Shown here piece by piece: positions 1,352 through 20,503 of a DNA stretch of 64,000 nucleotides. Under the pieces are notes generated by a model that was given only the letters and a program-made list of their open reading frames with translations, was not told where the DNA came from and did no database searches. The DNA is from Minisyncoccota bacterium. Lineage in GTDB: Bacteria; Patescibacteriota; Minisyncoccia; Phycocordibacterales; SW-6-46-9. How positions within the stretch are numbered: position 1 is the first letter of the stretch; each line of letters opens with the position of its first letter. The position numbers were made by a program, and so were the translations under genes. Location of the stretch: NCBI GenBank assembly GCA_040905385.1, contig JBBDRP010000002.1, forward strand, positions 226,292 through 290,291, in the 5' to 3' direction.

Positions 1352-2137
1352 CGGTAGGTAATGCGGTAGCTAATAAAGCCCTTTTAGATAGGCATATTAT
1401 ATGAACTGGTAGCTAAATGACTTCTCGTTAAAGCGGGGGTCATTTTGCTTATTATTACAACCTCTAGGAAGATAAGAATATTCGTAAATTCAGAATGTTC
1501 GATCTTTCAGTTACTCTCTAGAATAAAGGTTAGTAAATCCTACTCATGAATTCTGTATAGCGATTAGATAGTGGAGGATAGTAAAAATTAGTTAAATTTT
1601 GGAAAAATAATAAAATCACTGGAGAATAATCTAAAATTTAATCTGGTATCAGCATTATTCGTATAATAAATGTTTAAAATTGCCAAAAATAAAAAATGAG
1701 TATGAATGTGAAATATCTAAATTATAATTATTTTTCTACGTAATTCTTTAAAATATTTACTGCCATAAAATGGTAAATTAACCTACCAAATACATCATAT
1801 TTACCTACCAATGAGCCTTATCTGGGCCATCGACATCAGCTGTCTGCTTACCGGGATTCAAGTATGAGGTTATTTCCTCTAAATTTCATCACTCGGTAAT
1901 GTCAATCTATTAACCCTTACATTCATAATTGGTAGGTACCTTATTTAAGTTGTTTTCGGATATTTTAATTACGGTAGGTATCTAGCTATCGCCTGAGAAA
2001 CATCTATCCTAGAACACTGTAAAATACCCCTCATATCGGCATGACGTGGTGAGTTTTGATTCAAATAATAGGTCTATTACTAGTCATATCGTGTCTCGTT
2101 TGTCCGAGAATCATGTGGATAAGATCGGGCTCAAATA

Positions 2138-5100
2138 TTGTACTATGAATGGCACATGGACGATCAACTGAATTTTGAAAATCAAACCCTTATCACCACG
2201 AACCTGGCGGCAGAGTTGACCGGGTACTCCTCAGACTACATTGGTCAGCTGGCTCGTGATGGTGGTGTTGCCTCGAAGAAAATTGCTGGTCGACGTTTTG
2301 TTGATCGCGATGAGCTGATTGCATATGCTGATGAGAATAAGAAAAGTTTTTCAATTGCTCAATTGCCTGCAGAGCATCGTCCTATATCTGACGAACCAGA
2401 ACCTGTCGAGTCATCGGCAGAGTCAAGCTCTGCACCGGAGGAAACAATAGCGACTGATGAGCAAGCGGACAACGTTGATCAGTCTGTTCCGGAAACTCCT
2501 GCGCCTGATAGTCTGAAAACGCTAGACGATGAGAATTCTGGACTGACCGTCTCTACCGATGAGATCTCTCAAAATAGAGCGTCATCACGATGGCGACTGA
2601 CGCGTGATAAGCACCGCTCGGGTGGTGGCGAGGTTGCGAAGACCTCGGTTTCTCGTTTGCCAGCGATTGCTATGTCACTGATGCTCGTTGCTTCAATTGG
2701 GATTATGTCCTTTGGCATGATTGGTTCGGGCTCTGCATCTGACGCTGGCCAGCATCGAACCTCGGACGATACTCAGTCGGTTGACCAAATAGCTGCATCA
2801 GTCGAGGCTGGATTGCTCGATACATCGGTTCGTTCAGCTGATGCTAAAGAGAAAAGCATTCTAACCTCATCGGTTGACGCGATGTCCTACTCGGTCAAGC
2901 TAGCAGCTGCCGCAGCCGGCACATCACTGAACACGTACGTTTTCCGTCCAGTCCGTAATCTTCTTTCCGATACAATCTACACCGGACTGGCCGGAATACT
3001 GAGGTTTGGTGAAGTCTTCCTCCCTGACTACTTTGGTGATTACTCAGCCGAGTTTGTGCTGAATGATGACGGTGATATTGAGATTGATCGTCAGCGAGCT
3101 GATGAGCAGATGGTGGCAATTACTCGTATCCAGAATCGAAGTCTCAGTGATCGGGTAATCATTACCGCTCTTACGCAGTTGACTGGAGTGACGGCACAGC
3201 TGGCCGAACGTATCGAGGATCCTGAAGCGACTGGTGGTGTCGCCTCACGTGATTTTGTACGTGACCGTATTGATCAGTTGCGGGACATTATGCATGGCAA
3301 CCTAGACTCCTTAATGGATGCTGTTGAGTACGATCACCCGAATGATATCGAGTTGACGACGGCGGATATTGGTACGACCACTTCCGGGGTTCTTGAGGTT
3401 ACCGGACAGACAACATTATCGCAGACACTCATAAACGGTCCGCTTTCGGTAATTGCACCAAACAGCACAAGTTCTAATACGTTGTTTGTGGATACAGCCA
3501 GTGGTCGTGTCGGTATTAATACTGATACACCGCAGTACACGTTGGATGTGAACGGCACCTTTAGAGCTGATTCATTTATCTCTAACTCCACCACTACGGC
3601 GGTTAACTTTACGGCCTCTTCGACTGACACGAATACTCTAACAGCCGACACTGCTACCATCACTGTTCTAACTGTTGGTGATCTTACCGCCACCAGCTCG
3701 GCTGATCTAGCCACGACAACCATTACAGATTTGTCGGCCTCTTCGACCGACACAGATTCGTTGACTGCTGATGATGTAGTAATTACTAATTCCACGACCA
3801 CTAATTCATACATTCAGCAGCTACTTGCTGATAATTCTACGACTACGAATGCGTACGTGACTTCTTTGGTAGCATCATCATCTAACCTCACCAGTGCCCA
3901 GATCGAGGATCTGATTGCCACCAACTCGACAACGACTAATTCTTACATTCAGAATCTCTTGAACGATAATACCACCACAACCAACGCCTACATCACCAAC
4001 CTGATTGCGGAGGACATCACAGTCACTAATGCAACAACGACTAATTCTTACATCCAGCAATTACTAGCCGATAATTCTACGACTACGAATGCGTACGTTA
4101 CCTCACTAGTGGCATCATCATCTGATCTCACCAGTGCCCAGATTGAGGACTTAATCGCGACGAACTCCACTACAACCAACGCCTACATCCAGAAACTTTT
4201 GGTTGATAACTCAACCACTACGAACGCCTTTATTACCTCTCTGGTAGCGGATAACCTGACGGCAACTAGCGGCACCATCACAAATCTCGTAGCTACAGAT
4301 TCGACCACAACCAATGCCTACATCACGAATCTGCTGGCTGACAATTCGACTTCGTCGAATCTTTATTCATCTTCGCTCATTGCAGGCAGTGGAGACATCA
4401 CTGACTTCACCGCTGAGAACGCAACGATTACAAACGCCACCACCACCAACTTCTTTGCGACCCTGGCCAACTTCACCACCGCCTTCTTTGATAACCTCAC
4501 GGCCACCATCGCCGACATTACTAATCTAGAGGTGGACAATGCAACAACGACGAACTTGGTGGCAGTACAGTCCACCACAACCGACGCGTATATTCAGAAT
4601 CTTCTGGCTGACCAGTCGACAACCACAAACTTGACCGTTACAGGCGACACCATACTCGGCAACACAGCATTGGATACGTTGACGGTTAATGCCACTGTTG
4701 AGACCGACCTGGTGCCAAACTCTAACGCTACACTGAATCTCGGTTCTCCATCCTTCTACTGGAACATTGCGTATCTGGATACGATTAATGCCAACAACAT
4801 ATCTGCGGCCTCGACCTCTATCTCTGGAACGCAGGCAGAAAGCTTTACGCTTAATACTGATAATAGTACGCAGGATGGTGAAGATTCAGAGCTAATTTTC
4901 TACCGCGGTCAGGTAACACCGAATGCGGTGATTCAATGGGATTCGGTAGCAGATCGCTTTGATTTCAATCAGTCTCTATATATAAACAATGAATCAGCGT
5001 CGACAACCAATCCGACCTTGGTGGCTGAAGGGGTGATTGGGCAGACGGCTGATCTTTTCCAGCTGGCTTCATCGTCTGGCGACACACTTTTCTCGGTTGG

Positions 5101-8100
5101 GGCGGATGGGTCTGTTGATCTAATTTCGGCTTCAGCTACTGACTTTACTGCTACCAACGCCACTACGACGAACTTCTTCGCAAGCCTCGCCAACTTCACC
5201 ACTGCCTTCTTTGATAACCTCACGGCCACCATCGCGAGTATTACAAACCTCGAGGTCGACAACGCCACGACTACCAACCTAGTTGCCACAGACGCTACGA
5301 CAACTAACCTAACGGCTAGTGGACAGACCGATCTGGCCACAACAAGTGTGACTGGTAATCTGGATGTGAATTCTGGTAGTTTGAGAATAAGCGATTCAGG
5401 ACGCGCTGGGTTTGAGATAGAAAATACTGGCGCGTCATTTACTAATTCATTTATCACTGGAGGAATCGGTAATCCAAAGTTGTTTGCTAACTGGACGTTG
5501 GATGATGAACCAAGCGATGACACAAAGCCAACCTGGGGAACCAAGCTTGCTATCGATCAAGATAGGTTTGAGATTATTCGACTACCGGCCGGAATTGGTG
5601 GTGATTCTGGAACCGGACAGTTGATGGTTGTTGACGCTGCAGGTCAAGTTGGCATTGGTACCTCAACTCCAATCGTTTCTTTAGATATTAATCACACCGA
5701 TGCAGTGCGGCTGCCGGTGGGTACCTCTGCTCAGCGACCAAGTGGTGAGTCAGGATACATCCGCTATAACAGCGATACTGCTCAGTTTGAAGGTTTTTAT
5801 GCTGGAGCGTGGCAGGGCCTGGGTGGTGTCATTGATGTCGACCAGGACACCTACATCACCGCCGAGGAAAGTACCGACGATGATCACCTGCGCTTCTACA
5901 CGGCTGGATCTGAGCAGATGACCATTACTGCTGCGGGTGATGTTGGAATCGGAACAGATAACCCAGCCGAGCGGCTTGAGGTGGCTGGCAGTGGTGGTAC
6001 TCGATTCCTGGTGTCTGATGACACTGGTTACGCCGCTTTCCGATTGGATGCTGCCAGTGGTGAGACGTCGGCCCTTGACTTTGCTCAGGCCGGAACTAAC
6101 ATCTGGGGCTTGGGTATGAAGCAGCAGTCTGGCAATGATGACTTCTGGATCTGGGATGCTCCGTCCGGAGACACACCACGATTTGTTATCGATGCCGTGA
6201 GTGGTGATGTTGGTATCGGCACCACGTCACCAGCCAACACTCTGGATGTAGACGGTGGTATTGATGCCGACACGCTTAATACTGGGCAGGGAGACAACGA
6301 ACTGTACGCGATGGATCAGGATGTTCAGATGACAGATGACGTTACGTTCGCATCGGTAGATACCGCCACCATTACAACCGACAGTTTCTCAGCTACCTCC
6401 GCAGACTTTGTTGACCTGACGGCTGATAACGCCACTACAACCAACTTCTTTGCCTCACTCGCCAACTTCACAACGGCAATCTTTGATAACCTCACGGCCA
6501 CCATCGCCACGATTACGAACCTAGAGGTGGACAATGCAACGACCACGAACCTGGTAGCAACTGATGCAACAACTACCAACCTGACCGCTACTGGACAGAC
6601 GGACTTGGCAACGACGACCGTTACCGGTGATTTCACGGTTAATACAGATAATCTGTATGTAGATGAATCAACTGGCGTTGTCGGGATAGGTATCAATAGC
6701 CCGTCTAGCTATAGCGATAATGTGCTTGATCTTGGTGGTGGTCTAGCATTTGATGGTCAGACAATGTTTAGAAGGTTGGGAAATGATTTTGAGATTGGTG
6801 ACATGCACTCTGGGGATGGTAATATTCATAATCTTTACTTCTTTACTAACGGTAATAGTAATACCGATTTGTCTATTATTGAAAGCGGTAACATTGGTAT
6901 CGCAACACGTACACCGGCTGTATCGTTGGATATAAATGCCACCGATGCAGTGCGGCTGCCGGTTGGTACCTCAGCAGAGCGCCCAAGCGGTGAGGCTGGA
7001 TTCATTCGCTACAACAGCGAAAACAGTCAATTCGAAGGTTTCTATGCCGGGGCGTGGCAGGGCTTAGGCGGTGTCATTGATGTCGACCAGGACACCTACA
7101 TTACCGCCGAGGAAAGCTCGGATGAAGATTACCTGCGCTTCTATACGGCTGGCTCTGAGCGGATGACGGTGACTAATACGGGTGAAGTAGGTATTGGTAC
7201 TACCAGTCCAGAAAATATTTTATCTATAGATACTTCAAATACGAATGATGACGGAATCAGTTTATATGAAAATGGGAATCCGCTTGCTTTTATTGGAGAT
7301 TCATCAGCTTCATTTTCCACAGGGGTCTTGAGGTTGTATTACGAGAATTCTGAAAGAGTTAGAATCAATTCTTCCGGAGATAGTTACTTTAACGGTGGAG
7401 ATATTGGAATTGGCGTTTCAAGTCCAGATGAGTTATTACACGTAGACGGAGATTCAGCAGAGTCTTACATTAAGGTGAGTACTGCATCAGGAGATAAGGC
7501 TGGTATTAAATTTATTGAAGGTTCATCAGATTTATGGACCCTTTATCACGAAAATACCAGTAACTCCTTTAGTGTAAATGAAGATGGAACAGATTATCTG
7601 AGGATAATAAGTGGCGGTAACGTTGGCATCGGTACCACCTCGCCCGCTACAACCCTTGACGTCGCTGGTACCACCACAGCCCAGGCCTTCTCCGTCGGCG
7701 GTGACACCATCAATGACTTCACCGGCCAAGGCTTGAGTGTGGCCAATAACATTTTGAACCTTGATGATGTAGAGACACTCGGCACCTCACTCACCGCCGG
7801 ATCCGTTGTCTTTAGTGATGGCTCAAGCCTGACCGAAGACAATACCAACTTCTTCTGGGATGATGCAAATGACAGGTTGGGAATTGGGACAAATAGTCCA
7901 ACGAGCCCACTTCATATTATTGATTCTGGATTTACACTTGCTGAATTTACTCGTGATTCTACAGCTGGGGCAGGATTTACTCTTAGTAATAATACTGACA
8001 GTATCAACTTTGGACTTGGAGCTGGCGGAGAATTTTTTGCTGGTATTTCTGGTGGTACTGATAATTTCTTTGCAGCAAGTTCAACTACTTTTCAGGTTGG

Positions 8101-11100
8101 CTCTAATTCACGGATTGGATTTACGAGTGGTACAAGCCCAACAGAAAGTAATGTAGACACCAGTCTTTTCCGTAACGCTGCAAATGTATTACGGACCAAC
8201 GATTCATTTATTGTTGATGGAAGTATCGGTATTGGCACGACATCACCAGCTTCCGAGCTTGATGTTTGGGGTGACTTCCGCGCTGGTACCAGCTCGACGC
8301 CGACGTTATTTTCAGATGCATCGACCGGGCGAGTTGGAATTGGAACGTCGAGTCCGGACCATAAACTCACTATTCGCGAAGATACCCCCAACTCTACTTT
8401 TGGTCTACACCTCGACGGTGCAGGTTCCGCCGAACCCACTATTTCCTTTGAAGAGAATGGTGAGGGTGAGAATTTCTTCCTCCGGTATAGTGGGCCTGAT
8501 AACAAATTTTATCTGGGGCGGGGAGTAATACCTGGTTTCTTCAGTCAAGAAGCTATAAGAATGACTATTGAGCGGAATAGCGGTAGAGTCGGAATCGGGA
8601 CGACGAATCCAGCTAGTACTCTTGACGTGGCCGGTACCACCACCGCGCAGGCTTTCTCGGTCGGTGGTGATATCATTAATGACTTTACTGGCACTGGCCT
8701 GAGTGTGGCCGCTAATGTGCTGAACGTTACGCTGAGTCCGTTTAGTACTGATGACCTCTCTGAAGGATCAAATCTGTACTTCACCGATCAGCGAGCGCGC
8801 GATGTCTTTTCTACCGATGCGACGGGACTTACCTACAGCGCGGCTTCGGGAGTACTGAGTCTCACCACCGGTTACAACATTCCACTGACAGCCAGCACCA
8901 CTGACTGGCAGAGCTTTTACGAGACACCGAGTACCCGCATTACCGCCGGTACTGGTCTGAGCTGGAGTGCCAACACGTTGAATACGAATGATATCGAGAC
9001 GCTGACCACCTCCTTCACCGCCGGATCCATCATCTTTAGCGATGGCACCAACCTCGCCCAGGACAATGCCAACTTCTTCTGGGATGATACGAATAATCGA
9101 CTCGGAATTGGGACTACTACACCATCCGCAATTCTGGAAATAGTGGGGGGTGGATCAACGCCGTACCTGCGTATCGGCTCCGGCGGTGGCGGTGCCTACG
9201 CCTTTGAGGTAGATGAGAATGACAAGGTGAGCGTCGGTACCGGCAATGACGATATCTACTTTAATACCTCGGGTGATACGCAGGTGGGTGTAGGAACCTC
9301 TTCGCCAATCTCTGACTTTACCGTTGTGGGTGATTCATACTTCCAGGGCGATGTCGAGGTTACTGGTACGACCAGCGTCGCTAGGTTCAGCGTCGCCACC
9401 GATACCATCACGGACATTACTGGTGACGGTTTGTCGGTGGTTTCGCAGGGCGGTGGAGGACTTGGGCTGACGGTGGATGATATAGAGACACTTTCAACCG
9501 GGCTTAGTGCCGGCTCTATCGTCTTTAGTGATGGCTTATTTCTAACAGAGGATAGCGACAACTTCTTCTGGGATGATGCTAGTAATCGACTCGGTATTGG
9601 GACTAGCAGTCCAAGCGAAACGCTTCAGGTTGCAGGAACCGCTTGGCTTCGCGGCTCAGGGACAACTAACGGATTACTTGTAAACTCAAGCGGAAACGTC
9701 GGCATCGGCACATTATCACCTACCACTACTTTGGAGGTCGCCGGCACCACGACCGCCCAGGCCTTCTCTGTCGGTGGCGATACCATCAATGATTTCACCG
9801 GCCAGGGGCTTTCGGTAGCTAACAATATTCTAAATCTTGATGATGTCGAGACCTTTAGTACCTCACTCTTGGCGGGCTCTGTCGTCTTCTCTGACGGATC
9901 AACATTGACCGAGGACAACGCCAACTTCTTCTGGGACGATGCGAACAATCGGCTGGGAATTGGTACCACCTCGCCAGCTTCCAAGCTGGATGTGTGGGGT
10001 GACTTCCGAGCTGGTACCAGTACGACACCGACGCTGTTTGCTGATACAGCGGCCAATCGAGTAGGGATTGGAACGGTGAGTCCGAGCCATAAACTCACTA
10101 TTCGCGAGGATGCCTCGAACGCTACTTTCGGTATGCACCTCGAAGGCGCAGGTTCTGCCGAACCTACTATTTCTTTTGAAGAGCAGGATGAGGGTGAGAA
10201 TTTTTTCCTCCGGTATAGTGGGGCTGATAATAACTTTTATCTGGGGCGGGGAGTCATACCTGGTTTTGCTAGTCAAGAAGCTATAAGAATGACTATTGAG
10301 CGGGACAGCGACAGAGTCGGTATAGGGACGACGAATCCAGCTAGTACTCTTGACGTGGCCGGAGATATCACCTCTAGCGGCGTTCTGGACATAAATGGTA
10401 CGGGGACCTCGACCTTTGAAGGTGGTATCGATATCGCTGGTTCGATTCTGCCGCGGTCCGACGCTGCCTACGACCTTGGATCTGCCAGCCTACAATGGCG
10501 CGATGTCTACATCAGTTCTGGATCCCTGTACATCGGTGGTCAGAAGGTGCTGGAAGAGGACGCGGATGGAGACATTAATATAACCGCTGACCCAGACCAG
10601 AATCTTAAGCTAACTGCGACCGGTACTGGTAGCGTACAGCTTGGTGCTACTGGCAGCGGAAGCACAAATGTGATAAGCGGAAACTTTGGTATCGGTATCG
10701 GCACCACATCACCTGCCACCACACTTGAGGTTGGTGGCACCGCAACCGTGAATGCGCTGGCGGTTGGTGGGGATACCATCAGTGACTTCACCGGTACAGG
10801 ACTGTCCGTAGCCAGCAATGTGCTGAACGTCTCTTTGGCGTCATTTAGCACAACAGACCTCGCTGAAGGCACAAATCTCTACTTCACCAATGAAAGAGCC
10901 GAGGATGCGGCCGGCGGCATGTTCTCCGGCAATACCGAGACGCTTATTACTGCCACGTATGAGGATGGAGACGGTACGGTTGATCTGGTAGTGGATAACA
11001 ACCTTGCCAACTACTCGAATGCCACCTCACTCTTCCTTGACGGTGTAACCGCTACTGGACTAGAGAAGTCAGGAACTGATGTGGCGCTTACCACCGGCTA

Positions 11101-13117
11101 CAACATTCCACTGACCGCCTCAACGACCGACTGGCAGAGCTTCTACGAGACCCCATCCAGTCGCGTTACCGCCGGCACCGGTCTCTCTTGGAGCACAAAT
11201 ACACTGAATGTAAATGATGTCGAGACGCTGACCACCAGTCTCACCGCCGGATCAATCATCTTTAGCAATGGCACCAACCTCGCCCAGGACAATGCGAACT
11301 TCTTCTGGGACAGTGCTAACAGTCGGCTGGGGATTGGCACCAACGGGCCATCCGCGTTGCTGGAGGTTGCGGCTACTGGCACTACACCGCGTTTCCGCGT
11401 CGAGTCGGCCACTAGTGGCGTCTACGCGCTGGATATTGATGGAGACGACATGGCCACCCTGGGTACCGGTAATGGCCACATCTTTCTGGATACCTCTGGC
11501 ACCACCAATGTAGGTGTGGGTACCTCGACCCCGGCGGTGGACTTCCAGGTCGAGGGAATTGTCCGCCAATCGAACGCGCTTAACTGTGACCTGGAGGCCA
11601 ATGCTAATGGTGATCTGATCTGTGCCGGTACATCTGACTTTAATCTGAAGACGAATATCTTTACCTACAATAGCACCAGCTCGCTGGCAAAGATTAATCA
11701 GCTGGAGGCGCAGACGTATAACTACACGCCGGAGGCGCAGCTGGGTGAGCGCAAGGAGATTGGATTTATTGCCCAGGATGTAGAGAAGATCTTCCCCGAG
11801 CTGGTGGGTGAAAGCAACGGCTACAAGTACATTCGCTACGACAAGCTGACGGTGATTCTGGCCGAGGCGGTCCAGGAGCTGGATGACAAGGTTATCGCGC
11901 TGCAAGCGCAGCAGGCGTCATCAACTGCATCCGGAGATGTGGCTGGTGATAGCGATGGTGCTACTACGTCGGGTACGGAGCAGGTGAATAATGATGACGC
12001 AGAAGAAACTACAGATGAAGCTGAGTCATCGGGAGATGACGAAGTCCCGTCTGAGGAGCAAAGCGACGAAAGCGGGGAAGAAGCATCCTCCAGTATGCTA
12101 GCAGCCGTTGGATCCTGGCTGACTGAGCGGAGGGTAGAGATTACCGACGGTATTGCCCGATTTGTCCGCGGAATCTTCAACTCGGTACGCACCAACCGAC
12201 TTATCGTCGACAACACTCGTGATGATGAAGAGGATGACGAGGATCTTGACCCAGCAGCTGGTACCGGGTTCATTGCTACTGGCGAGCGTTTGGCTGAGAT
12301 AGAGAATAATCAGGCGGCCACCAGCTCGCAGATTATCGTGACCTTTACCCGCGAGATTAATACCTCGTACTGGGTCGAGAAAGCCGAGGGCGCCTTCAGC
12401 GTTCACACCACCGATGATGTGGTGGCCACCACGACCTTTGACTACTTCATTATCGGGGTAGAGATGACCGAGGAGCAGGTGGCATCATCAAGCGCGGTGC
12501 TGCAATCGATCGAGGAGGATGAAGAAGACTCGGACGATGAGAACGGGGGAATGACGCCGATTGATGATGGTGGTGACGAGGAGAGTGGCGATACAGGCGG
12601 TGACAATACTGCCCAGGATGACAGTCAGACCGACTCGGCCGATGACACTGCCTCAACAACCAACGAAACGAACGCAAGTAGCAGTGACCCGTCGAGTGAC
12701 GAAGTGGGTGAGACTGAGGATGATCTGGATACAAGCACCACCACCGCCAGCAGCACACCAGACACGACCACACCGACCATTTCTGGCACCAGTGATGTGA
12801 TTCTTACTGAAGGTGACAGCTTTGATCTACTCGAAGGTGTAACCGCTGAAGATGATATTGATGGCGATATCACTAATAATATTACTGTTGATGAGGGCGG
12901 CTTTGATGCTAATGCTGTCGGTGAATACTTCATCACCTACACTGTCGCAGACCAAGCCGGCAATGAAGCAACAGCCGAACGCACCGTCGTGGTCGAGAAA
13001 GTAGAGGAGGAAGCCGACCCTGACCCTGTGGAGTCAGAAACCGATTCCACAGGGTCTTCAGAGGAAACGGATGAGACTGAGGAGACGGTTTCAACAGAAC
13101 CGACTGATGATGCGTAA
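2138..13117 (+). CDS. Giant (3659 aa) membrane-anchored surface protein. It has an N-terminal HTH-like segment, one TM helix, NSTTTNxYI and VGIGTxSP tail-fibre-like repeats, a Peptidase S74 (endosialidase chaperone) autoprocessing domain, an acidic linker, and a C-terminal DUF5011/Ig-like domain.
   Basis: Single uninterrupted ORF. TM helix LPAIAMSLMLVASIGIMSFGMIGSG at aa 174-197. Repeated VGIGTTSPASTLDV motifs (phage tail fibre repeat). DFNLKTNIFTYN...IGFIAQDVEKIFPELV...YDKLTVILAEAVQEL matches Peptidase_S74. ISGTSDVILTEGDSFDLLEGVTAEDDIDGDIT...TYTVADQAGNEATAERTVVV matches DUF5011. Confidence 0.85.
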   Translation: MYYEWHMDDQLNFENQTLITTNLAAELTGYSSDYIGQLARDGGVASKKIAGRRFVDRDELIAYADENKKSFSIAQLPAEHRPISDEPEPVESSAESSSAPEETIATDEQADNVDQSVPETPAPDSLKTLDDENSGLTVSTDEISQNRASSRWRLTRDKHRSGGGEVAKTSVSRLPAIAMSLMLVASIGIMSFGMIGSGSASDAGQHRTSDDTQSVDQIAASVEAGLLDTSVRSADAKEKSILTSSVDAMSYSVKLAAAAAGTSLNTYVFRPVRNLLSDTIYTGLAGILRFGEVFLPDYFGDYSAEFVLNDDGDIEIDRQRADEQMVAITRIQNRSLSDRVIITALTQLTGVTAQLAERIEDPEATGGVASRDFVRDRIDQLRDIMHGNLDSLMDAVEYDHPNDIELTTADIGTTTSGVLEVTGQTTLSQTLINGPLSVIAPNSTSSNTLFVDTASGRVGINTDTPQYTLDVNGTFRADSFISNSTTTAVNFTASSTDTNTLTADTATITVLTVGDLTATSSADLATTTITDLSASSTDTDSLTADDVVITNSTTTNSYIQQLLADNSTTTNAYVTSLVASSSNLTSAQIEDLIATNSTTTNSYIQNLLNDNTTTTNAYITNLIAEDITVTNATTTNSYIQQLLADNSTTTNAYVTSLVASSSDLTSAQIEDLIATNSTTTNAYIQKLLVDNSTTTNAFITSLVADNLTATSGTITNLVATDSTTTNAYITNLLADNSTSSNLYSSSLIAGSGDITDFTAENATITNATTTNFFATLANFTTAFFDNLTATIADITNLEVDNATTTNLVAVQSTTTDAYIQNLLADQSTTTNLTVTGDTILGNTALDTLTVNATVETDLVPNSNATLNLGSPSFYWNIAYLDTINANNISAASTSISGTQAESFTLNTDNSTQDGEDSELIFYRGQVTPNAVIQWDSVADRFDFNQSLYINNESASTTNPTLVAEGVIGQTADLFQLASSSGDTLFSVGADGSVDLISASATDFTATNATTTNFFASLANFTTAFFDNLTATIASITNLEVDNATTTNLVATDATTTNLTASGQTDLATTSVTGNLDVNSGSLRISDSGRAGFEIENTGASFTNSFITGGIGNPKLFANWTLDDEPSDDTKPTWGTKLAIDQDRFEIIRLPAGIGGDSGTGQLMVVDAAGQVGIGTSTPIVSLDINHTDAVRLPVGTSAQRPSGESGYIRYNSDTAQFEGFYAGAWQGLGGVIDVDQDTYITAEESTDDDHLRFYTAGSEQMTITAAGDVGIGTDNPAERLEVAGSGGTRFLVSDDTGYAAFRLDAASGETSALDFAQAGTNIWGLGMKQQSGNDDFWIWDAPSGDTPRFVIDAVSGDVGIGTTSPANTLDVDGGIDADTLNTGQGDNELYAMDQDVQMTDDVTFASVDTATITTDSFSATSADFVDLTADNATTTNFFASLANFTTAIFDNLTATIATITNLEVDNATTTNLVATDATTTNLTATGQTDLATTTVTGDFTVNTDNLYVDESTGVVGIGINSPSSYSDNVLDLGGGLAFDGQTMFRRLGNDFEIGDMHSGDGNIHNLYFFTNGNSNTDLSIIESGNIGIATRTPAVSLDINATDAVRLPVGTSAERPSGEAGFIRYNSENSQFEGFYAGAWQGLGGVIDVDQDTYITAEESSDEDYLRFYTAGSERMTVTNTGEVGIGTTSPENILSIDTSNTNDDGISLYENGNPLAFIGDSSASFSTGVLRLYYENSERVRINSSGDSYFNGGDIGIGVSSPDELLHVDGDSAESYIKVSTASGDKAGIKFIEGSSDLWTLYHENTSNSFSVNEDGTDYLRIISGGNVGIGTTSPATTLDVAGTTTAQAFSVGGDTINDFTGQGLSVANNILNLDDVETLGTSLTAGSVVFSDGSSLTEDNTNFFWDDANDRLGIGTNSPTSPLHIIDSGFTLAEFTRDSTAGAGFTLSNNTDSINFGLGAGGEFFAGISGGTDNFFAASSTTFQVGSNSRIGFTSGTSPTESNVDTSLFRNAANVLRTNDSFIVDGSIGIGTTSPASELDVWGDFRAGTSSTPTLFSDASTGRVGIGTSSPDHKLTIREDTPNSTFGLHLDGAGSAEPTISFEENGEGENFFLRYSGPDNKFYLGRGVIPGFFSQEAIRMTIERNSGRVGIGTTNPASTLDVAGTTTAQAFSVGGDIINDFTGTGLSVAANVLNVTLSPFSTDDLSEGSNLYFTDQRARDVFSTDATGLTYSAASGVLSLTTGYNIPLTASTTDWQSFYETPSTRITAGTGLSWSANTLNTNDIETLTTSFTAGSIIFSDGTNLAQDNANFFWDDTNNRLGIGTTTPSAILEIVGGGSTPYLRIGSGGGGAYAFEVDENDKVSVGTGNDDIYFNTSGDTQVGVGTSSPISDFTVVGDSYFQGDVEVTGTTSVARFSVATDTITDITGDGLSVVSQGGGGLGLTVDDIETLSTGLSAGSIVFSDGLFLTEDSDNFFWDDASNRLGIGTSSPSETLQVAGTAWLRGSGTTNGLLVNSSGNVGIGTLSPTTTLEVAGTTTAQAFSVGGDTINDFTGQGLSVANNILNLDDVETFSTSLLAGSVVFSDGSTLTEDNANFFWDDANNRLGIGTTSPASKLDVWGDFRAGTSTTPTLFADTAANRVGIGTVSPSHKLTIREDASNATFGMHLEGAGSAEPTISFEEQDEGENFFLRYSGADNNFYLGRGVIPGFASQEAIRMTIERDSDRVGIGTTNPASTLDVAGDITSSGVLDINGTGTSTFEGGIDIAGSILPRSDAAYDLGSASLQWRDVYISSGSLYIGGQKVLEEDADGDINITADPDQNLKLTATGTGSVQLGATGSGSTNVISGNFGIGIGTTSPATTLEVGGTATVNALAVGGDTISDFTGTGLSVASNVLNVSLASFSTTDLAEGTNLYFTNERAEDAAGGMFSGNTETLITATYEDGDGTVDLVVDNNLANYSNATSLFLDGVTATGLEKSGTDVALTTGYNIPLTASTTDWQSFYETPSSRVTAGTGLSWSTNTLNVNDVETLTTSLTAGSIIFSNGTNLAQDNANFFWDSANSRLGIGTNGPSALLEVAATGTTPRFRVESATSGVYALDIDGDDMATLGTGNGHIFLDTSGTTNVGVGTSTPAVDFQVEGIVRQSNALNCDLEANANGDLICAGTSDFNLKTNIFTYNSTSSLAKINQLEAQTYNYTPEAQLGERKEIGFIAQDVEKIFPELVGESNGYKYIRYDKLTVILAEAVQELDDKVIALQAQQASSTASGDVAGDSDGATTSGTEQVNNDDAEETTDEAESSGDDEVPSEEQSDESGEEASSSMLAAVGSWLTERRVEITDGIARFVRGIFNSVRTNRLIVDNTRDDEEDDEDLDPAAGTGFIATGERLAEIENNQAATSSQIIVTFTREINTSYWVEKAEGAFSVHTTDDVVATTTFDYFIIGVEMTEEQVASSSAVLQSIEEDEEDSDDENGGMTPIDDGGDEESGDTGGDNTAQDDSQTDSADDTASTTNETNASSSDPSSDEVGETEDDLDTSTTTASSTPDTTTPTISGTSDVILTEGDSFDLLEGVTAEDDIDGDITNNITVDEGGFDANAVGEYFITYTVADQAGNEATAERTVVVEKVEEEADPDPVESETDSTGSSEETDETEETVSTEPTDDA
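7615..10345 (+). repeat. Intragenic segmental duplication inside giant gene 1. A ~0.65-1 kb protein-coding module appears twice with near-identical amino-acid sequence.
   Basis: aa stretch VGIGTTSPATTLDVAGTTTAQAFSVGGDTINDFTGQGLSVANNILNLDDVETL...FFWDDANDRLGIGT (nt ~7615-7880) recurs at nt ~9705-9965. The following SPASELDVWGDFRAGTS...GRGVIPGFFSQEAIRMTIER...STLDVAG (nt ~8240-8640) recurs at ~9975-10350. Confidence 0.8.
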
Positions 13118-13126
13118 GACAACATC

Positions 13127-13153
13127 GTCTGTAACAATCGGATTGTTACAGAC
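13127..13153. repeat. Perfect 13-bp-stem palindrome GTCTGTAACAATC-G-GATTGTTACAGAC. It is a REP-like hairpin between giant genes 1 and 2, sharing the outer GTCTGTAA/TTACAGAC stem with the hairpins at 19769-20683.
   Basis: Read directly from the sequence. 30 bp after the stop codon of gene 1, 24 bp before the start of gene 2. Confidence 0.8.
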
Positions 13154-13176
13154 ACCTAGTATTAGGGCTTAAATTT

Positions 13177-16100
13177 ATGAGTACGAATTTTATACAATCG
13201 GTGAAAGGCTTTATTAGCGAGAATACGCGTCTGGCGGCGGTATTGTTGGTGGTCTTTTTGGCGCTGGTAACCTTGCTCGTGTTGGGGGTCAGCAGTATTC
13301 AGGCGACCTGGTACAGCGACACGAGTGGCAGCGGAACCTGGGACTATCGTCAGCGGATCATTATCGATAGCGACCAGGTTGACTCGAATCTGCAAGACTT
13401 TCCTGTTTACGTTGATCTTGTTGATCTCGGCAGCCAATTTTTTAGTAACGTCGCGGCCGACGGTGGTGATATTCGCGTGACCAATGCGGTTGGTGAGGAG
13501 CTGCCGCGAGAGGTTGTTTCCGTCGACACCGCCTCCTCGACGGGAGAGCTGCACTTCAAGGCCGATAATCTCTCCAGCACGGCGGACACGACCTTCTATA
13601 TTTATTATGGTAATGCTGATACAGGTAATTACGCCACCAGCAGCACGTACGGTGCCCAGAATGTTTGGACGAATAATGAGGCAGCAGTATGGCACCTTAA
13701 TGAAGATCCCAGCGGTACGGCACCGCAGATACTTGATAGCACCGTAAATAATATTCATGGAACCACTGGTGGCTCGATGACGAGTGCTGATTCTGTTCTT
13801 GGAAGACTTGGCAGGGCGCTTGATTTCGACGGTACTGATGATGATGTAGAAATTCCGGATAACATTTTAATAAACATAGCTGACTCATATGACCAGAAAA
13901 CTCAAACAGTATGGTTCAAGGCTGATGAGGTAACTAGTCGGCAGGTCATCTGGGAGGAAGGTGGTTTTGCAAACGGTATAAATATATATGTAGATAGTGG
14001 TACATTGTACGGCCGAGCCTGGAGTGATAGCGAAAGCTGGTCAAAGGAGCTACAGGTAACAACCAGTGTGGCGGCAGATACGTGGTATCAGGTTTATCTG
14101 GTTCTTGATGCACCGAATGATTCACTTGAAATGTTTGTTAATGGTAGTTCAGTGGGGACGGATAATAAGACAGACGGTAATTTTCATAGTGGTCACGGTA
14201 ACGATATTGGTATTGGTAAAGTACAGGGAGATACGAGAACCCACGTAGGAGATGAAGTAGGTTTAGAATTTAACGGTGTTATTGATGAAGTTAGGCATAT
14301 CAATGAAGATCTGCGTTCTGCCGACTGGATCGCCGCCGAATACACCAACCAAAACGCACCAAATACCTTCTACACCGCTGGCAGCCAGGAAACGCAAAGC
14401 TCATCCAACGTGCCGTTTGGTGACAACCCGGGTGGTGACTTTGCCGACGGGGACTGGGACTTCCGCGAGAAGATTACCATCCACGCTGATCAGGTTGATG
14501 CGAACCTTTCCGACTTTCCGGTGTATGTCGACCTGGCTGATATGAGTGTCAGCTTTTTCGCCAATACATCCGTTAACTGTGGTGATATACGTATGACCAA
14601 TGCTTCCGGTACCGAGCTGGCGCGCGAGGTGGTGGCGTGTGATACGTCAGCCGAGACCGGTGAGCTGCACTTCAAGGCTGACTCACTTTCCAGTACTACG
14701 GACACCGTTTTTTATATTTATTATGATAATCCAGATGCTCATGACTACGTAGTAGATGCCACGTATGGGGCGCAGAATGTCTGGACGAATAACCACGTTG
14801 GTGTGTGGCATCTGAATGAAAGCTCAGGAAACACTCTTGATTCAACATCAAATAATAATGACGCAACAACTAACGGCCCTATACAGGGAGTAGAGGGACA
14901 AGTTGGAGATGCTTACTCTTTTGATGGGGCGGATGACTACGTAGAAATCGATAATTTAATCGACGAAATCCCAAATACGTTTTCTGTCTGGGTAAAAGTA
15001 GCGACTGATGTTGGTGATGGAAGAATAGGAGTCATTGCAGGTAATTATCCTGGTGATGGTTCCGCTATAAATATTGAAGGATATTTCAATGGTGAGGTAA
15101 GGATGTATTGGAATGGCGGACAGGAAAATATAAGATACGAAACGGATATAAGAACTGGCGAATGGGAGCATTTGGTATTTGTGAGAGATGTAGCAGCTGA
15201 TGAGATCAGATTATACCGTAATGGTATTAATATACCGAAGACAAGTGATGCGGGAGATGACGTAACACTAGCAGACAACAATAATAAGTTCAGAATTGGT
15301 TCCGATCATCCGAGCGATAGAGAGCCTTTCGAAGGTGATATAGATAATCTTCATATCTATAACACTGATCTCTCTGAAGAAGAAATCTCCGCTATATACA
15401 ACAACCAGAACTCACCATCCACCTTCTACACCATCTCTGGCGGTGTTTCTGCAGCGCCGGTGCTGCTGACTCCAGAAGACACGTCCACTGAGGTGGTGCG
15501 CAACCCGACTCTGGACTGGGAGCCGGTACAAAACGCTGGTGAGTATCAGGTGCAGGTGTCGCCGACCTCGACCTTCTCATCCATCGTGGTGGATGCAGAT
15601 GTGAGCACCAGCGAGATAACCCTGGGCACGCCGTACCCATCACTGAATGCCAGCACGACCTATCACTGGCGCGTGCGGACGGTGGATGGGCAGGACTTCG
15701 GTACGTGGTCAACTGATTTCGAATTTACGACAGCGGCTGGTCTGGCCGGCAGCGGTACCGAGGCCGATCCGTACCTTGTCAGCACCCCACAGGATCTGGA
15801 TGATGTTCGCAATGATTTGACTGCTTATTACAGGCAGGAAAATGATATTGATCTTACTTTCGATACGCAGGATCCAGCGGGATTATTTTACAATTCAGGT
15901 CAAGGCTGGATTACGATTGATGATTTCGAGGGTGATTATGATCTCAATGGGTATTCTGTCCTGGGAATGTTTCAAGATAGGTCAGGTTTTTATAATCGAG
16001 GACTGTTTAGATTAATCAATGCAGGAACCTTACATGACGGCCACATTGATGGAGATATTACAGGAATTGATTCTAATACAGAGGGTTCAGGTGTTGCAGT

Positions 16101-19822: not shown

Positions 19823-20503
19823 ATGCTTTTACACATTATAAAACGAGGAGGACGCGGCCTGCCGATTGTTGCGGATGACGATGATCGCTGGCGATATCTG
19901 AAATGTCTGTATTATCTAAATGATAAAAATCATCCGATAGGTTGGGAGCGTGATGTTGAAGCGCTTGGTTCTGGACTGCACTTTCAACGCCCGGAATCGT
20001 GGGGTGGTGAGCGCGATCCGTACGTCGATATCCTGTCGTACTGTCTGATGGATAATCATTACCATCTATTCGTTTCCGAGCGCGATGAGGGCATGATGGC
20101 GGCTTTTACGAGGTCGCTAAATAAAAGCATGTCGCAGGCCTATAATGAAAAGCAAGACACAAGCGGAAGTATCTTTCAAGGCCCGCCCAAGAAAAAGTTT
20201 GTTGAGGATGACGCCTACCTGAAATTCCTGTACGTCTATGTCAACGTCAAGAATCCCTTCGAGCGGTATCAGGGCGGCATTCGGAAGGCGATCGAGAATT
20301 TTGATGACGCCTGGGAGTTTGCGCTCGAATACGATTTCTCTAGCTTACCAGATTGTGCGGGTGACCGGGCGTCACCCATCGTGTCGCTGGATATATTTCG
20401 GGATGCATTTTCAAGCTCCGCCGAGTTCAAAGAGTTCGCCCGCGAGCAGATGCATCGGTACGGGCAGTTTCTGGAAGATGTCGATGCGGATGACTTAGAG
20501 TAG
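19823..20503 (+). CDS. tnpA: IS200/IS605-family / REP-associated (RAYT-like) HUH tyrosine transposase (Y1_Tnp)
   Basis: HuH motif MDNHYHLFV (nt ~20055-20080) and catalytic-Tyr region LYVYVNVKNPFE (compare E. coli RayT YIYINPVKHG). At 226 aa it is slightly longer than typical TnpA. Flanked by directly oriented REP-like hairpins. Confidence 0.7.
   Translation: MLLHIIKRGGRGLPIVADDDDRWRYLKCLYYLNDKNHPIGWERDVEALGSGLHFQRPESWGGERDPYVDILSYCLMDNHYHLFVSERDEGMMAAFTRSLNKSMSQAYNEKQDTSGSIFQGPPKKKFVEDDAYLKFLYVYVNVKNPFERYQGGIRKAIENFDDAWEFALEYDFSSLPDCAGDRASPIVSLDIFRDAFSSSAEFKEFAREQMHRYGQFLEDVDADDLE

Follow-up and report, generated by a model that had tools for sequence, protein, structure and literature searches.

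The DNA analyzed here (the window) is a stretch of 64,000 nucleotides from a Minisyncoccota bacterium (NCBI assembly GCA_040905385.1, contig JBBDRP010000002.1, positions 226,292 to 290,291 of the forward strand), and our subject is the internal repeats of a gene near its start, giant gene 1. The product of this gene has 3,653 aa (MEX2514736.1), is annotated at NCBI as "immunoglobulin-like domain-containing protein," and comes from a 784-kb contig of a Candidatus Paceibacterota metagenome-assembled genome (MAG). It is a singleton at 90% clustering, and its frame is uninterrupted across 10,980 nt. The gene adjoins GatB, and GroEL, RNase J, glycosyl-transferases, hydrolases, and three tRNAs lie around it, indicating a cellular genome and a chromosomal gene; no phage genes were found among the surrounding genes scanned. 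Our analysis suggests that giant gene 1 very probably encodes a long membrane-anchored fibre of the phage-like kind that ends in a Peptidase_S74 (S74) domain and is known from the "mosaic adhesive trimer" (MAT) fibres of Bdellovibrio. Its repeats would be old structural modules that arose by nested duplication, were kept by purifying selection, and later underwent module-sized conversion or replacement. The main parts of the gene are as follows.

2138..13117, forward strand: open reading frame (ORF) of giant gene 1, with the ATG at 2156 (gene 2156..13117)
2192..2338 (aa 19-67), forward strand: N-terminal excisionase/MerR-like helix-turn-helix, a weak match (HTH_17, E=0.008, below the Pfam cut-off)
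2657..2725 (aa 174-196), forward strand: single hydrophobic stretch LPAIAMSLMLVASIGIMSFGMIG, read from the sequence as a putative membrane anchor
11633..11806 (aa 3166-3223), forward strand: Peptidase_S74 intramolecular chaperone/autoprotease domain (PF13884, E=3.6e-15)
12776..12994 (aa 3547-3619), forward strand: C-terminal bacterial surface Ig-like domain (Pfam), downstream of the predicted S74 cleavage site

The identity of the protein as a fibre emerges from its C-terminal part and from a short motif that punctuates it. The S74 domain starts with SDFNLK (aa 3166, nt 11633), which fits the SDxxxK catalytic motif of this family. In Bdellovibrio, an S74 domain terminates 13 of the 21 members of the MAT family, and capping loops bearing a conserved motif close the intertwined trimeric beta-helices of MAT fibres (PMC10769870). 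The same capping-loop motif, [VIL]G[IV]G[TIV]xxPxxxL (typically VGIGTxxPxxxL), occurs 21 times in giant gene 1, from aa 1171 to aa 3125, and its copies align residue by residue with the capping loops of Bd2133 and Bd3182. Searches with phmmer against all PDB sequences matched aa 1242-1370 to Bd3182 (8OJN, E=5e-5) and aa ~1670-1770 to Bd2133 (8OND, E=3e-6). A profile built from one of the repeated modules described below, module B, and 21 homologous segments gave much stronger matches: Bd2133 (8OND, E=2.6e-22), Bd1334 (8OML, 1e-12), Bd3182 (8OJN, 1e-12), and Bd2439 (8OL4, 3.5e-8). The AlphaFold2 (AF2) model of copy B2 had a mean confidence (pLDDT) of 79.7, and its sole significant Foldseek match was the Bd3182 beta-helix (8ONC_A, E=2e-4, probability 1.0, TM 0.49). 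There is also a match to a tail-fibre family of PHROG (E=6.6e-22); a search of NCBIfam returned zero matches. These comparisons indicate that giant gene 1 is homologous to the MAT fibres. By this homology, its product may form trimers, cleave itself, and serve in adhesion: the fibre would be a chain of beta-helix modules, each closed by a capping loop, and the terminal chaperone-protease would detach itself by cleavage once it had folded the trimer. Extrapolating from Bd3182, in which a 135-aa tip domain spans 60 Å and the whole fibre of ~760 aa spans 550 Å (PMC10769870), the predicted fibre part of ~2,700 residues would be ~0.1-0.2 µm long, comparable to the cell.

The two ends of the protein are peculiar. 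The layout of helix-turn-helix, membrane helix, and giant fibre with GIGT motifs is also found in homologues of giant gene 1: P0076 has MerR at its N terminus (E=3.6e-13), and P0134, P0152, P0176, and P0183 share the opening motif. This layout would place a DNA-binding-type domain on a surface fibre. At the other end, the S74 domain is followed (window 11807-13117) by ~435 residues comprising acidic low-complexity tracts, an unassigned domain, and the Ig-like domain, whereas typical S74 proteins end with the chaperone. If the domain cuts as it does in phage proteins, the whole ~435-residue tail would come off.

The repeats themselves are numerous and regular. A comparison of the gene with itself by blastn gave 20 in-frame direct-repeat pairs, all with offsets that are multiples of three, and a separate repeat search agreed. 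The original prediction had described modules of ~90 and ~130 aa recurring ~2.1 kb apart. Such modules are indeed real, in frame, and far above chance, but the spacing holds for one of them only: module A (89 aa; 7614-7890 versus 9690-9966, 75.2% nt identity, E=7e-48) recurs at an offset of 2076 nt and module B (135 aa; 8228-8634 versus 9956-10362, 85.5%, E=1e-133) at 1728 nt. The second offset is shorter because the first copy of the region holds an extra module of 116 aa, X, between A and B. A 55-aa module was found three times, as had been proposed, with 78-86% nt identity between copies and 93-95% aa identity over a 44-aa core; the self-comparison paired its region at 4433-4564 versus 6428-6559 (85.6% nt) and at 4429-4563 versus 5152-5286 (81.5%). 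The description of the copies as near-identical fits, loosely, the proteins (84-95%) but not the DNA (73-86%), although this range lies well above the 60% nt identity below which the repeats were to be dismissed. Comparison of protein fragments against the whole, together with global alignment, placed A and B within two adjacent collinear super-units of ~2 kb. The order is A1-X-B1-A2/C1-D1-E1 in unit 1 (nt 7613-9688) and A3-B2-Y-A4/C2-D2 in unit 2 (nt 9689-11557), which bears out an intragenic duplication of multi-module segments. The super-unit pairs, together with a 240-nt tandem pair closer to the N terminus, indicate that the gene was built by nested duplication of module blocks. These blocks are listed below.

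3785..4251, forward strand: 240-nt (80-aa) tandem duplication (77.5% nt, 88% aa, dS ~2) within a region of 15-aa periodicity, NxTTTNxYIxxLLA
4424..4588, forward strand: 55-aa module, copy 1, TNATTTNFFATLANFTTAFFDNLTATIADITNLEVDNATTTNLVA
5147..5311, forward strand: 55-aa module, copy 2
6419..6583, forward strand: 55-aa module, copy 3
5111..5983, forward strand: ~1.25-kb super-unit, copy 1, with homologous blocks 5111-5464 and 5639-5983, the second with Bd3182-like beta-helix modules
6383..7228, forward strand: ~1.25-kb super-unit, copy 2, whose first block, 6383-6736, is 64% identical (aa) and whose second, 6884-7228, is 76% identical (aa; 82% nt where it aligns best)
7613..7879, forward strand: module A1 (89 aa), made of a capping loop, then AQAFSVGGDTINDFTG..., then an NFFWDD submodule
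7880..8227, forward strand: module X (116 aa), in unit 1 only, with GIGT capping-loop motifs at both sides
8228..8632, forward strand: module B1 (135 aa), a short capping-loop module plus a beta-helix module of ~85 aa
8633..9112, forward strand: module A2/C1, A-type with an internal insertion and the NFFWDD submodule at its end
9113..9331, forward strand: module D1
9332..9688, forward strand: module E1, a further A-type module, last in unit 1
9689..9955, forward strand: module A3, copy of A1 (89% aa, 73% nt; saturated synonymous sites)
9956..10360, forward strand: module B2, copy of B1 (84% aa, 85% nt, dS 0.41), the one whose model matches the Bd3182 beta-helix
10361..10735, forward strand: module Y (125 aa), in unit 2 only, bounded by capping-loop motifs
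10736..11338, forward strand: module A4/C2, copy of A2/C1
11339..11557, forward strand: module D2, old copy of D1 (49% aa)

The copies had been regarded as recent, and this is contradicted by their synonymous divergence (dS 0.41 to more than 2), by the random choice of codons in pair A, and by the position of module D relative to an outgroup. Using the method of Nei and Gojobori, pair B is the youngest, with a dS of 0.41 and a ratio of nonsynonymous to synonymous divergence (dN/dS) of 0.23; the other pairs have dS values from 0.64 to more than 2 and dN/dS of 0.03-0.2. We also used a same-codon test, which avoids saturation corrections by counting how often residues conserved between two copies are encoded by the identical codon and comparing this with the codon usage of the gene. 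In pair A, 32 of 78 such residues share their codon (0.41 versus 0.35 expected, z=1.2), which is indistinguishable from random. In pair B, the figure is 87 of 112 (0.78, z=10), and the difference between the two pairs is highly significant (Fisher test, p=3.7e-7). The remaining pairs lie at 0.43-0.68, with 0.55 for C/D. Identity at 4-fold sites tells the same story: it is 38% for A, 73% for B, and 45% for C/D, where chance alone would give 25%. No exact run common to two copies is longer than 38 nt. Recombination-prone repeats are near-identical in DNA (roughly above 95%, with long exact matches), and the copies of giant gene 1, at 73-86% and with runs of at most 38 nt, are not of this kind. 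Hence, the copies are ancient, and the protein copies have been kept alike by purifying selection on the fibre fold. Full-length modules elsewhere in public data are at most 48% identical to A and 38% to B; the duplications are thus specific to the lineage of giant gene 1, though not recent. More generally, high protein identity between internal repeats does not imply recency, and here the codon-level comparison and an outgroup reverse the impression given by the amino acids.

The outgroup is a 1,404-nt contig (JAIVGY010000399.1, NCBI assembly GCA_020201355.1; hereafter, L160) encoding a 449-aa fragment (P0135), the closest relative found in an exhaustive HMMER search of 1.84 billion representatives. 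L160 is 78% identical in nucleotides to positions 8954-9608 of the window, with a dS of 0.97. Over the 133 columns shared by L160 and the two units, it resembles unit 1 (81% aa, 77% nt) more than unit 2 (62% aa, 65% nt), and the two units are 64% (aa) and 67% (nt) identical to each other. Module D accounts for this signal: taken alone, D1 is 89% identical to L160 in amino acids and only 49% to D2 (L160 versus D2, 53%). Since D1 is far nearer to L160 than to D2, the duplication that gave rise to D1 and D2 is older than a split of dS ~1, and the D-module part, at least, of the ~2-kb duplication predates the separation from the L160 lineage. Pair A, with its saturated codons, is at least comparably old, and pair B younger. 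Complete close orthologues were not found in genome or metagenome collections, where our scans gave distant relatives only, and an exact look-up of the upstream GatB for alternative assemblies of the locus found none.

These data suggest a history in several steps. Blocks of modules of ~240 nt, 0.7 kb, 1.25 kb, and 2.1 kb would have been duplicated in a nested manner, within the lineage but long ago. Synonymous changes would then have accumulated to saturation or close to it, and the protein copies would have stayed 84-95% alike under purifying selection for the fibre fold. Divergence is patchy among modules, which fits an old duplication followed by module-sized conversion or replacement and not one event with uniform decay; the simplest reading places the breakpoints of such events in the capping-loop motif. 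X (116 aa) and Y (125 aa), the only large insertions or deletions that separate unit 1 from unit 2, each correspond exactly to a single module that has capping-loop motifs at both ends, so both were gained or lost whole, in register. Such changes fit unequal recombination between motifs and, equally, selection that tolerates only in-register changes. In L160, the capping loop that closes E1 is followed by a different module from that of the window, suggesting that modules were replaced between lineages at the motif boundary. Together with X and Y and the 100%-identical copies of some family members (see below), this supports the view that the number of modules in such fibres changes over evolutionary time. 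A bolder idea, which we regard as doubtful, is that the capping-loop motif (~45 nt, 21 copies) doubles as an in-register recombination site, and that conversion, insertion, and deletion between motifs reshape the fibres of bacteria in the candidate phyla radiation (CPR). If true, its traces would be the comparatively young age of pair B, the indels X and Y, and the other module that the nearest relative has after E1, and the gene would be a self-contained cassette system that varies a host-attachment fibre.

Other explanations of the repeats must be weighed against this history. The original prediction took them for recent segmental duplications that serve today as substrates for slipped-strand or recombinational length variants within the population. 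It is true that sequences 130-400 nt long and 73-86% identical recur in direct orientation at distances of 0.24-2.2 kb, that most pairs share exact runs of 28-38 nt, and that fresh amplification does occur in the family, as some members hold 100%-identical internal copies. Yet most pairs are at or close to synonymous saturation, even the youngest has a dS of 0.41, and part of the duplication, that of module D, predates a split of dS ~1. Slipped-strand mispairing is excluded by copies that lie 1.2-2.2 kb apart, differ at 14-27% of their bases, and have no identical stretch longer than 38 bases in common; nor are short tandem units present for slippage to act on, the sole tandem array consisting of 1.9 copies of 240 nt with 79% matches. 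RecA needs a minimal identical stretch, and recombination falls log-linearly with divergence. Recombinational expansion or contraction is thus possible but should be inefficient, being strongly depressed at a divergence of 14-27% and with exact runs of no more than 38 nt. We therefore find it highly improbable that the repeats are recent and unstable, and ongoing length variation of the fibre gene is unlikely to be frequent. An assembly artefact, i.e., collapsed or chimeric repeats, comes to mind because the sequence derives from a MAG and genes so large and repetitive are difficult to assemble. This is scarcely credible for a frame open over 10,980 nt in which all offsets are multiples of three and the differences concentrate at third codon positions; moreover, with 14-27% base differences and no exact repeat above 38 nt, standard k-mers resolve the copies. 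Even less credence can be given to template and variable repeats of a diversity-generating retroelement or to invertible shufflon cassettes. Such systems serve to diversify tail-fibre and surface proteins, and bacteria of this group commonly carry them. Here, however, the spectrum of mismatches is unbiased, without adenine bias in either copy, the differences between copies are mostly synonymous, nt 1500-14000 hold no inverted repeats of at least 30 nt, and the genes scanned include no reverse transcriptase or recombinase.

Two further possibilities concern the history of the copies after duplication. Module B, and perhaps also the NFFWD submodule, could be more alike because gene conversion acted on old paralogous modules and not because of a separate, later duplication. 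We hold this to be a serious possibility, if somewhat short of probable. In its favor, B shares 78% of its codons while its flank A is saturated; codon identity rises across B from 0.54 at the 5' end to 0.92 at the 3' end, where the longest exact run (38 nt) covers the terminal capping-loop motif; and the two NFFWD copies resemble each other more than they do the outgroup, the opposite of the adjoining D module. However, the same pattern would result if B alone had been copied and inserted beside A3 at the capping-loop motif, a run of 38 nt is unexceptional for 85% identity over 407 nt (by our own estimate, the expected longest run is ~26 nt), and the NFFWD difference comes from 58 codons only. 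Conversion as the cause of the lower divergence of B is an inference. The second possibility is that synonymous divergence was itself selected, as a safeguard against recombinational collapse of so large and repetitive a gene. In its support, pair A is 89% identical in protein yet random in codon choice, and identical stretches between copies never exceed 38 bases. But codon identity is not below random (0.41 versus 0.35), contrary to active avoidance; the longest exact runs are about as long as would be expected from the overall identity; in other family members, 100%-identical repeats are tolerated across most of the sequence; and neutral saturation combined with strong purifying selection suffices to explain the data. 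We regard selected recoding as very unlikely.

The preferred reading, an S74/MAT fibre made of ancient modules, should itself be interpreted with caution, since several observations weigh against it. The module-A profile meets the solved MAT fibres through the capping loop alone. For the region of the 55-aa module and the 15-aa repeats, the single-sequence AF2 model had a pLDDT of 48 and was not used. All 21 Bdellovibrio MATs have a signal peptide followed by a ~130-aa beta-rich domain that is conserved, whereas giant gene 1 starts with an HTH-like segment and a membrane helix; as its N terminus reads so differently, the Bdellovibrio-type start is probably absent. As for age, Nei-Gojobori estimates on 45-160 codons are noisy and saturate, and the outgroup is a single 1.4-kb contig with assumed orthology. 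The window copies of the NFFWD submodule (58 codons only) are 83% identical to each other in amino acids and 71-72% identical to L160, so that not every part of the super-unit demonstrably predates the split. Pair A is odd in that, of the two flagged pairs, it is the more similar in protein (89%) and yet has the most randomised codons, which requires a dN/dS of ~0.08 or less, lower than elsewhere in the gene. Finally, one genome does not separate gene conversion from a separate later duplication of B.

The family of giant gene 1 is large and provides a point of reference for the age of its repeats. At E<=1e-3, the exhaustive search gave 14,782 representatives; lengths of 2,000-6,600 aa, with up to 34 matched stretches, are frequent among them. 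A word-indexed protein search with a 916-aa region had returned no match longer than 1,602 aa, but it also missed its own 3,653-aa parent; hence, its absence of long homologues is not evidence. We compared 80 giants (at least 1,800 aa; the set included the unrelated giant gene 2 of the window) for internal copies. In eight of the 80, internal copies 100 aa or more in length are 100% identical, and the product of giant gene 1 is mid-range, its best copy of a 120-aa window being 83% identical. In P0144, 77% of such windows recur within the protein at 95% identity or more, and P0140, P0144, P0145, P0139, and P0176 consist largely of internal repeats that are 95-100% identical at the protein level, reflecting either very recent amplification or assembly artefacts. 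Subject to such assembly caveats, truly recent amplification in this family looks like 100%-identical copies, and giant gene 1 is not such a case. The conserved half of module A, TAGSVxFxxxGxLxQDNANFFWDDxNNRLGIGT, is widespread in CPR, Bacteroidota, other bacteria, and one phage family of unknown function, and the module-A profile found no counterpart of its NFFWDD half among solved structures.

Giant gene 1 is the first of three giant surface-protein genes in a row (3,653, 2,186, and 3,231 aa), which together occupy ~28 kb of the 784-kb genome (window 2138-30423). LamG_3 and DUF2341 repeats make up giant genes 2 and 3, neither of which is related to gene 1. Between them, a 226-aa ORF (window 19823-20503) has a weak match to an IS200-like Y1 transposase (E=5e-4, below the Pfam cut-off).

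Little is known of the machinery that bacteria of the CPR, which live fixed to other cells, use for attachment. It is therefore of interest that, of a Paceibacterota genome of ~0.8 Mb, 11 kb are devoted to a fibre with modules of phage tail fibres and of the fibres by which Bdellovibrio recognizes its prey. Repeated structural modules whose number sets the length of a long surface protein also occur in Gram-positive surface proteins of the Rib/alpha C and SasG types. Those proteins have near-identical tandem repeats that vary in copy number and are homogenised by recombination, whereas the copies in giant gene 1 are 14-27% diverged and not homogenised. Giant genes of Omnitrophota (10.1101/2023.11.21.568195), also considered as a parallel, encode other protein types and have no bearing here. 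The eukaryotic MyRF has an S74-type domain and the capping-loop motif in common with giant gene 1 (weak profile matches; PMC10769870), and it also joins a DNA-binding domain, a membrane helix, and S74, but their order and topology differ and there is no fibre of repeated modules. The S74 tailspikes and fibres of phages (K1F endosialidase, 3GW6; the T5 L-shaped tail fibre, 4UW8) share the Peptidase_S74 domain and the PHROG tail-fibre match, and by homology their trimeric beta-helix architecture would be expected in giant gene 1. They differ in that giant gene 1 is chromosomal, far longer, apparently membrane-anchored, and free of phage genes around it.

The closest likeness is to the S74 subgroup of the MAT fibres of Bdellovibrio bacteriovorus (Bd3182, Bd2133, Bd1334, and Bd2439; Caulton et al. 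2024, PMC10769870). Both have the same chain of beta-helices closed by capping loops, a C-terminal S74 domain with SDxxxK, and a mosaic, module-wise evolution, and the fold predicted for module B corresponds to the tip of Bd3182. The differences are of scale and of setting. The MATs have ~1,000 aa and giant gene 1 about four times as many; it carries ~435 aa, including the Ig-like domain, after S74; its A-type NFFWDD modules and 15-aa-periodic N-terminal region are additions with no solved counterpart; and its host belongs to the Paceibacterota (CPR), whereas Bdellovibrio is a Gram-negative predator. Hence, giant gene 1 is a very long CPR fibre of the already known S74/MAT kind, and the repeats are its ordinary building blocks.

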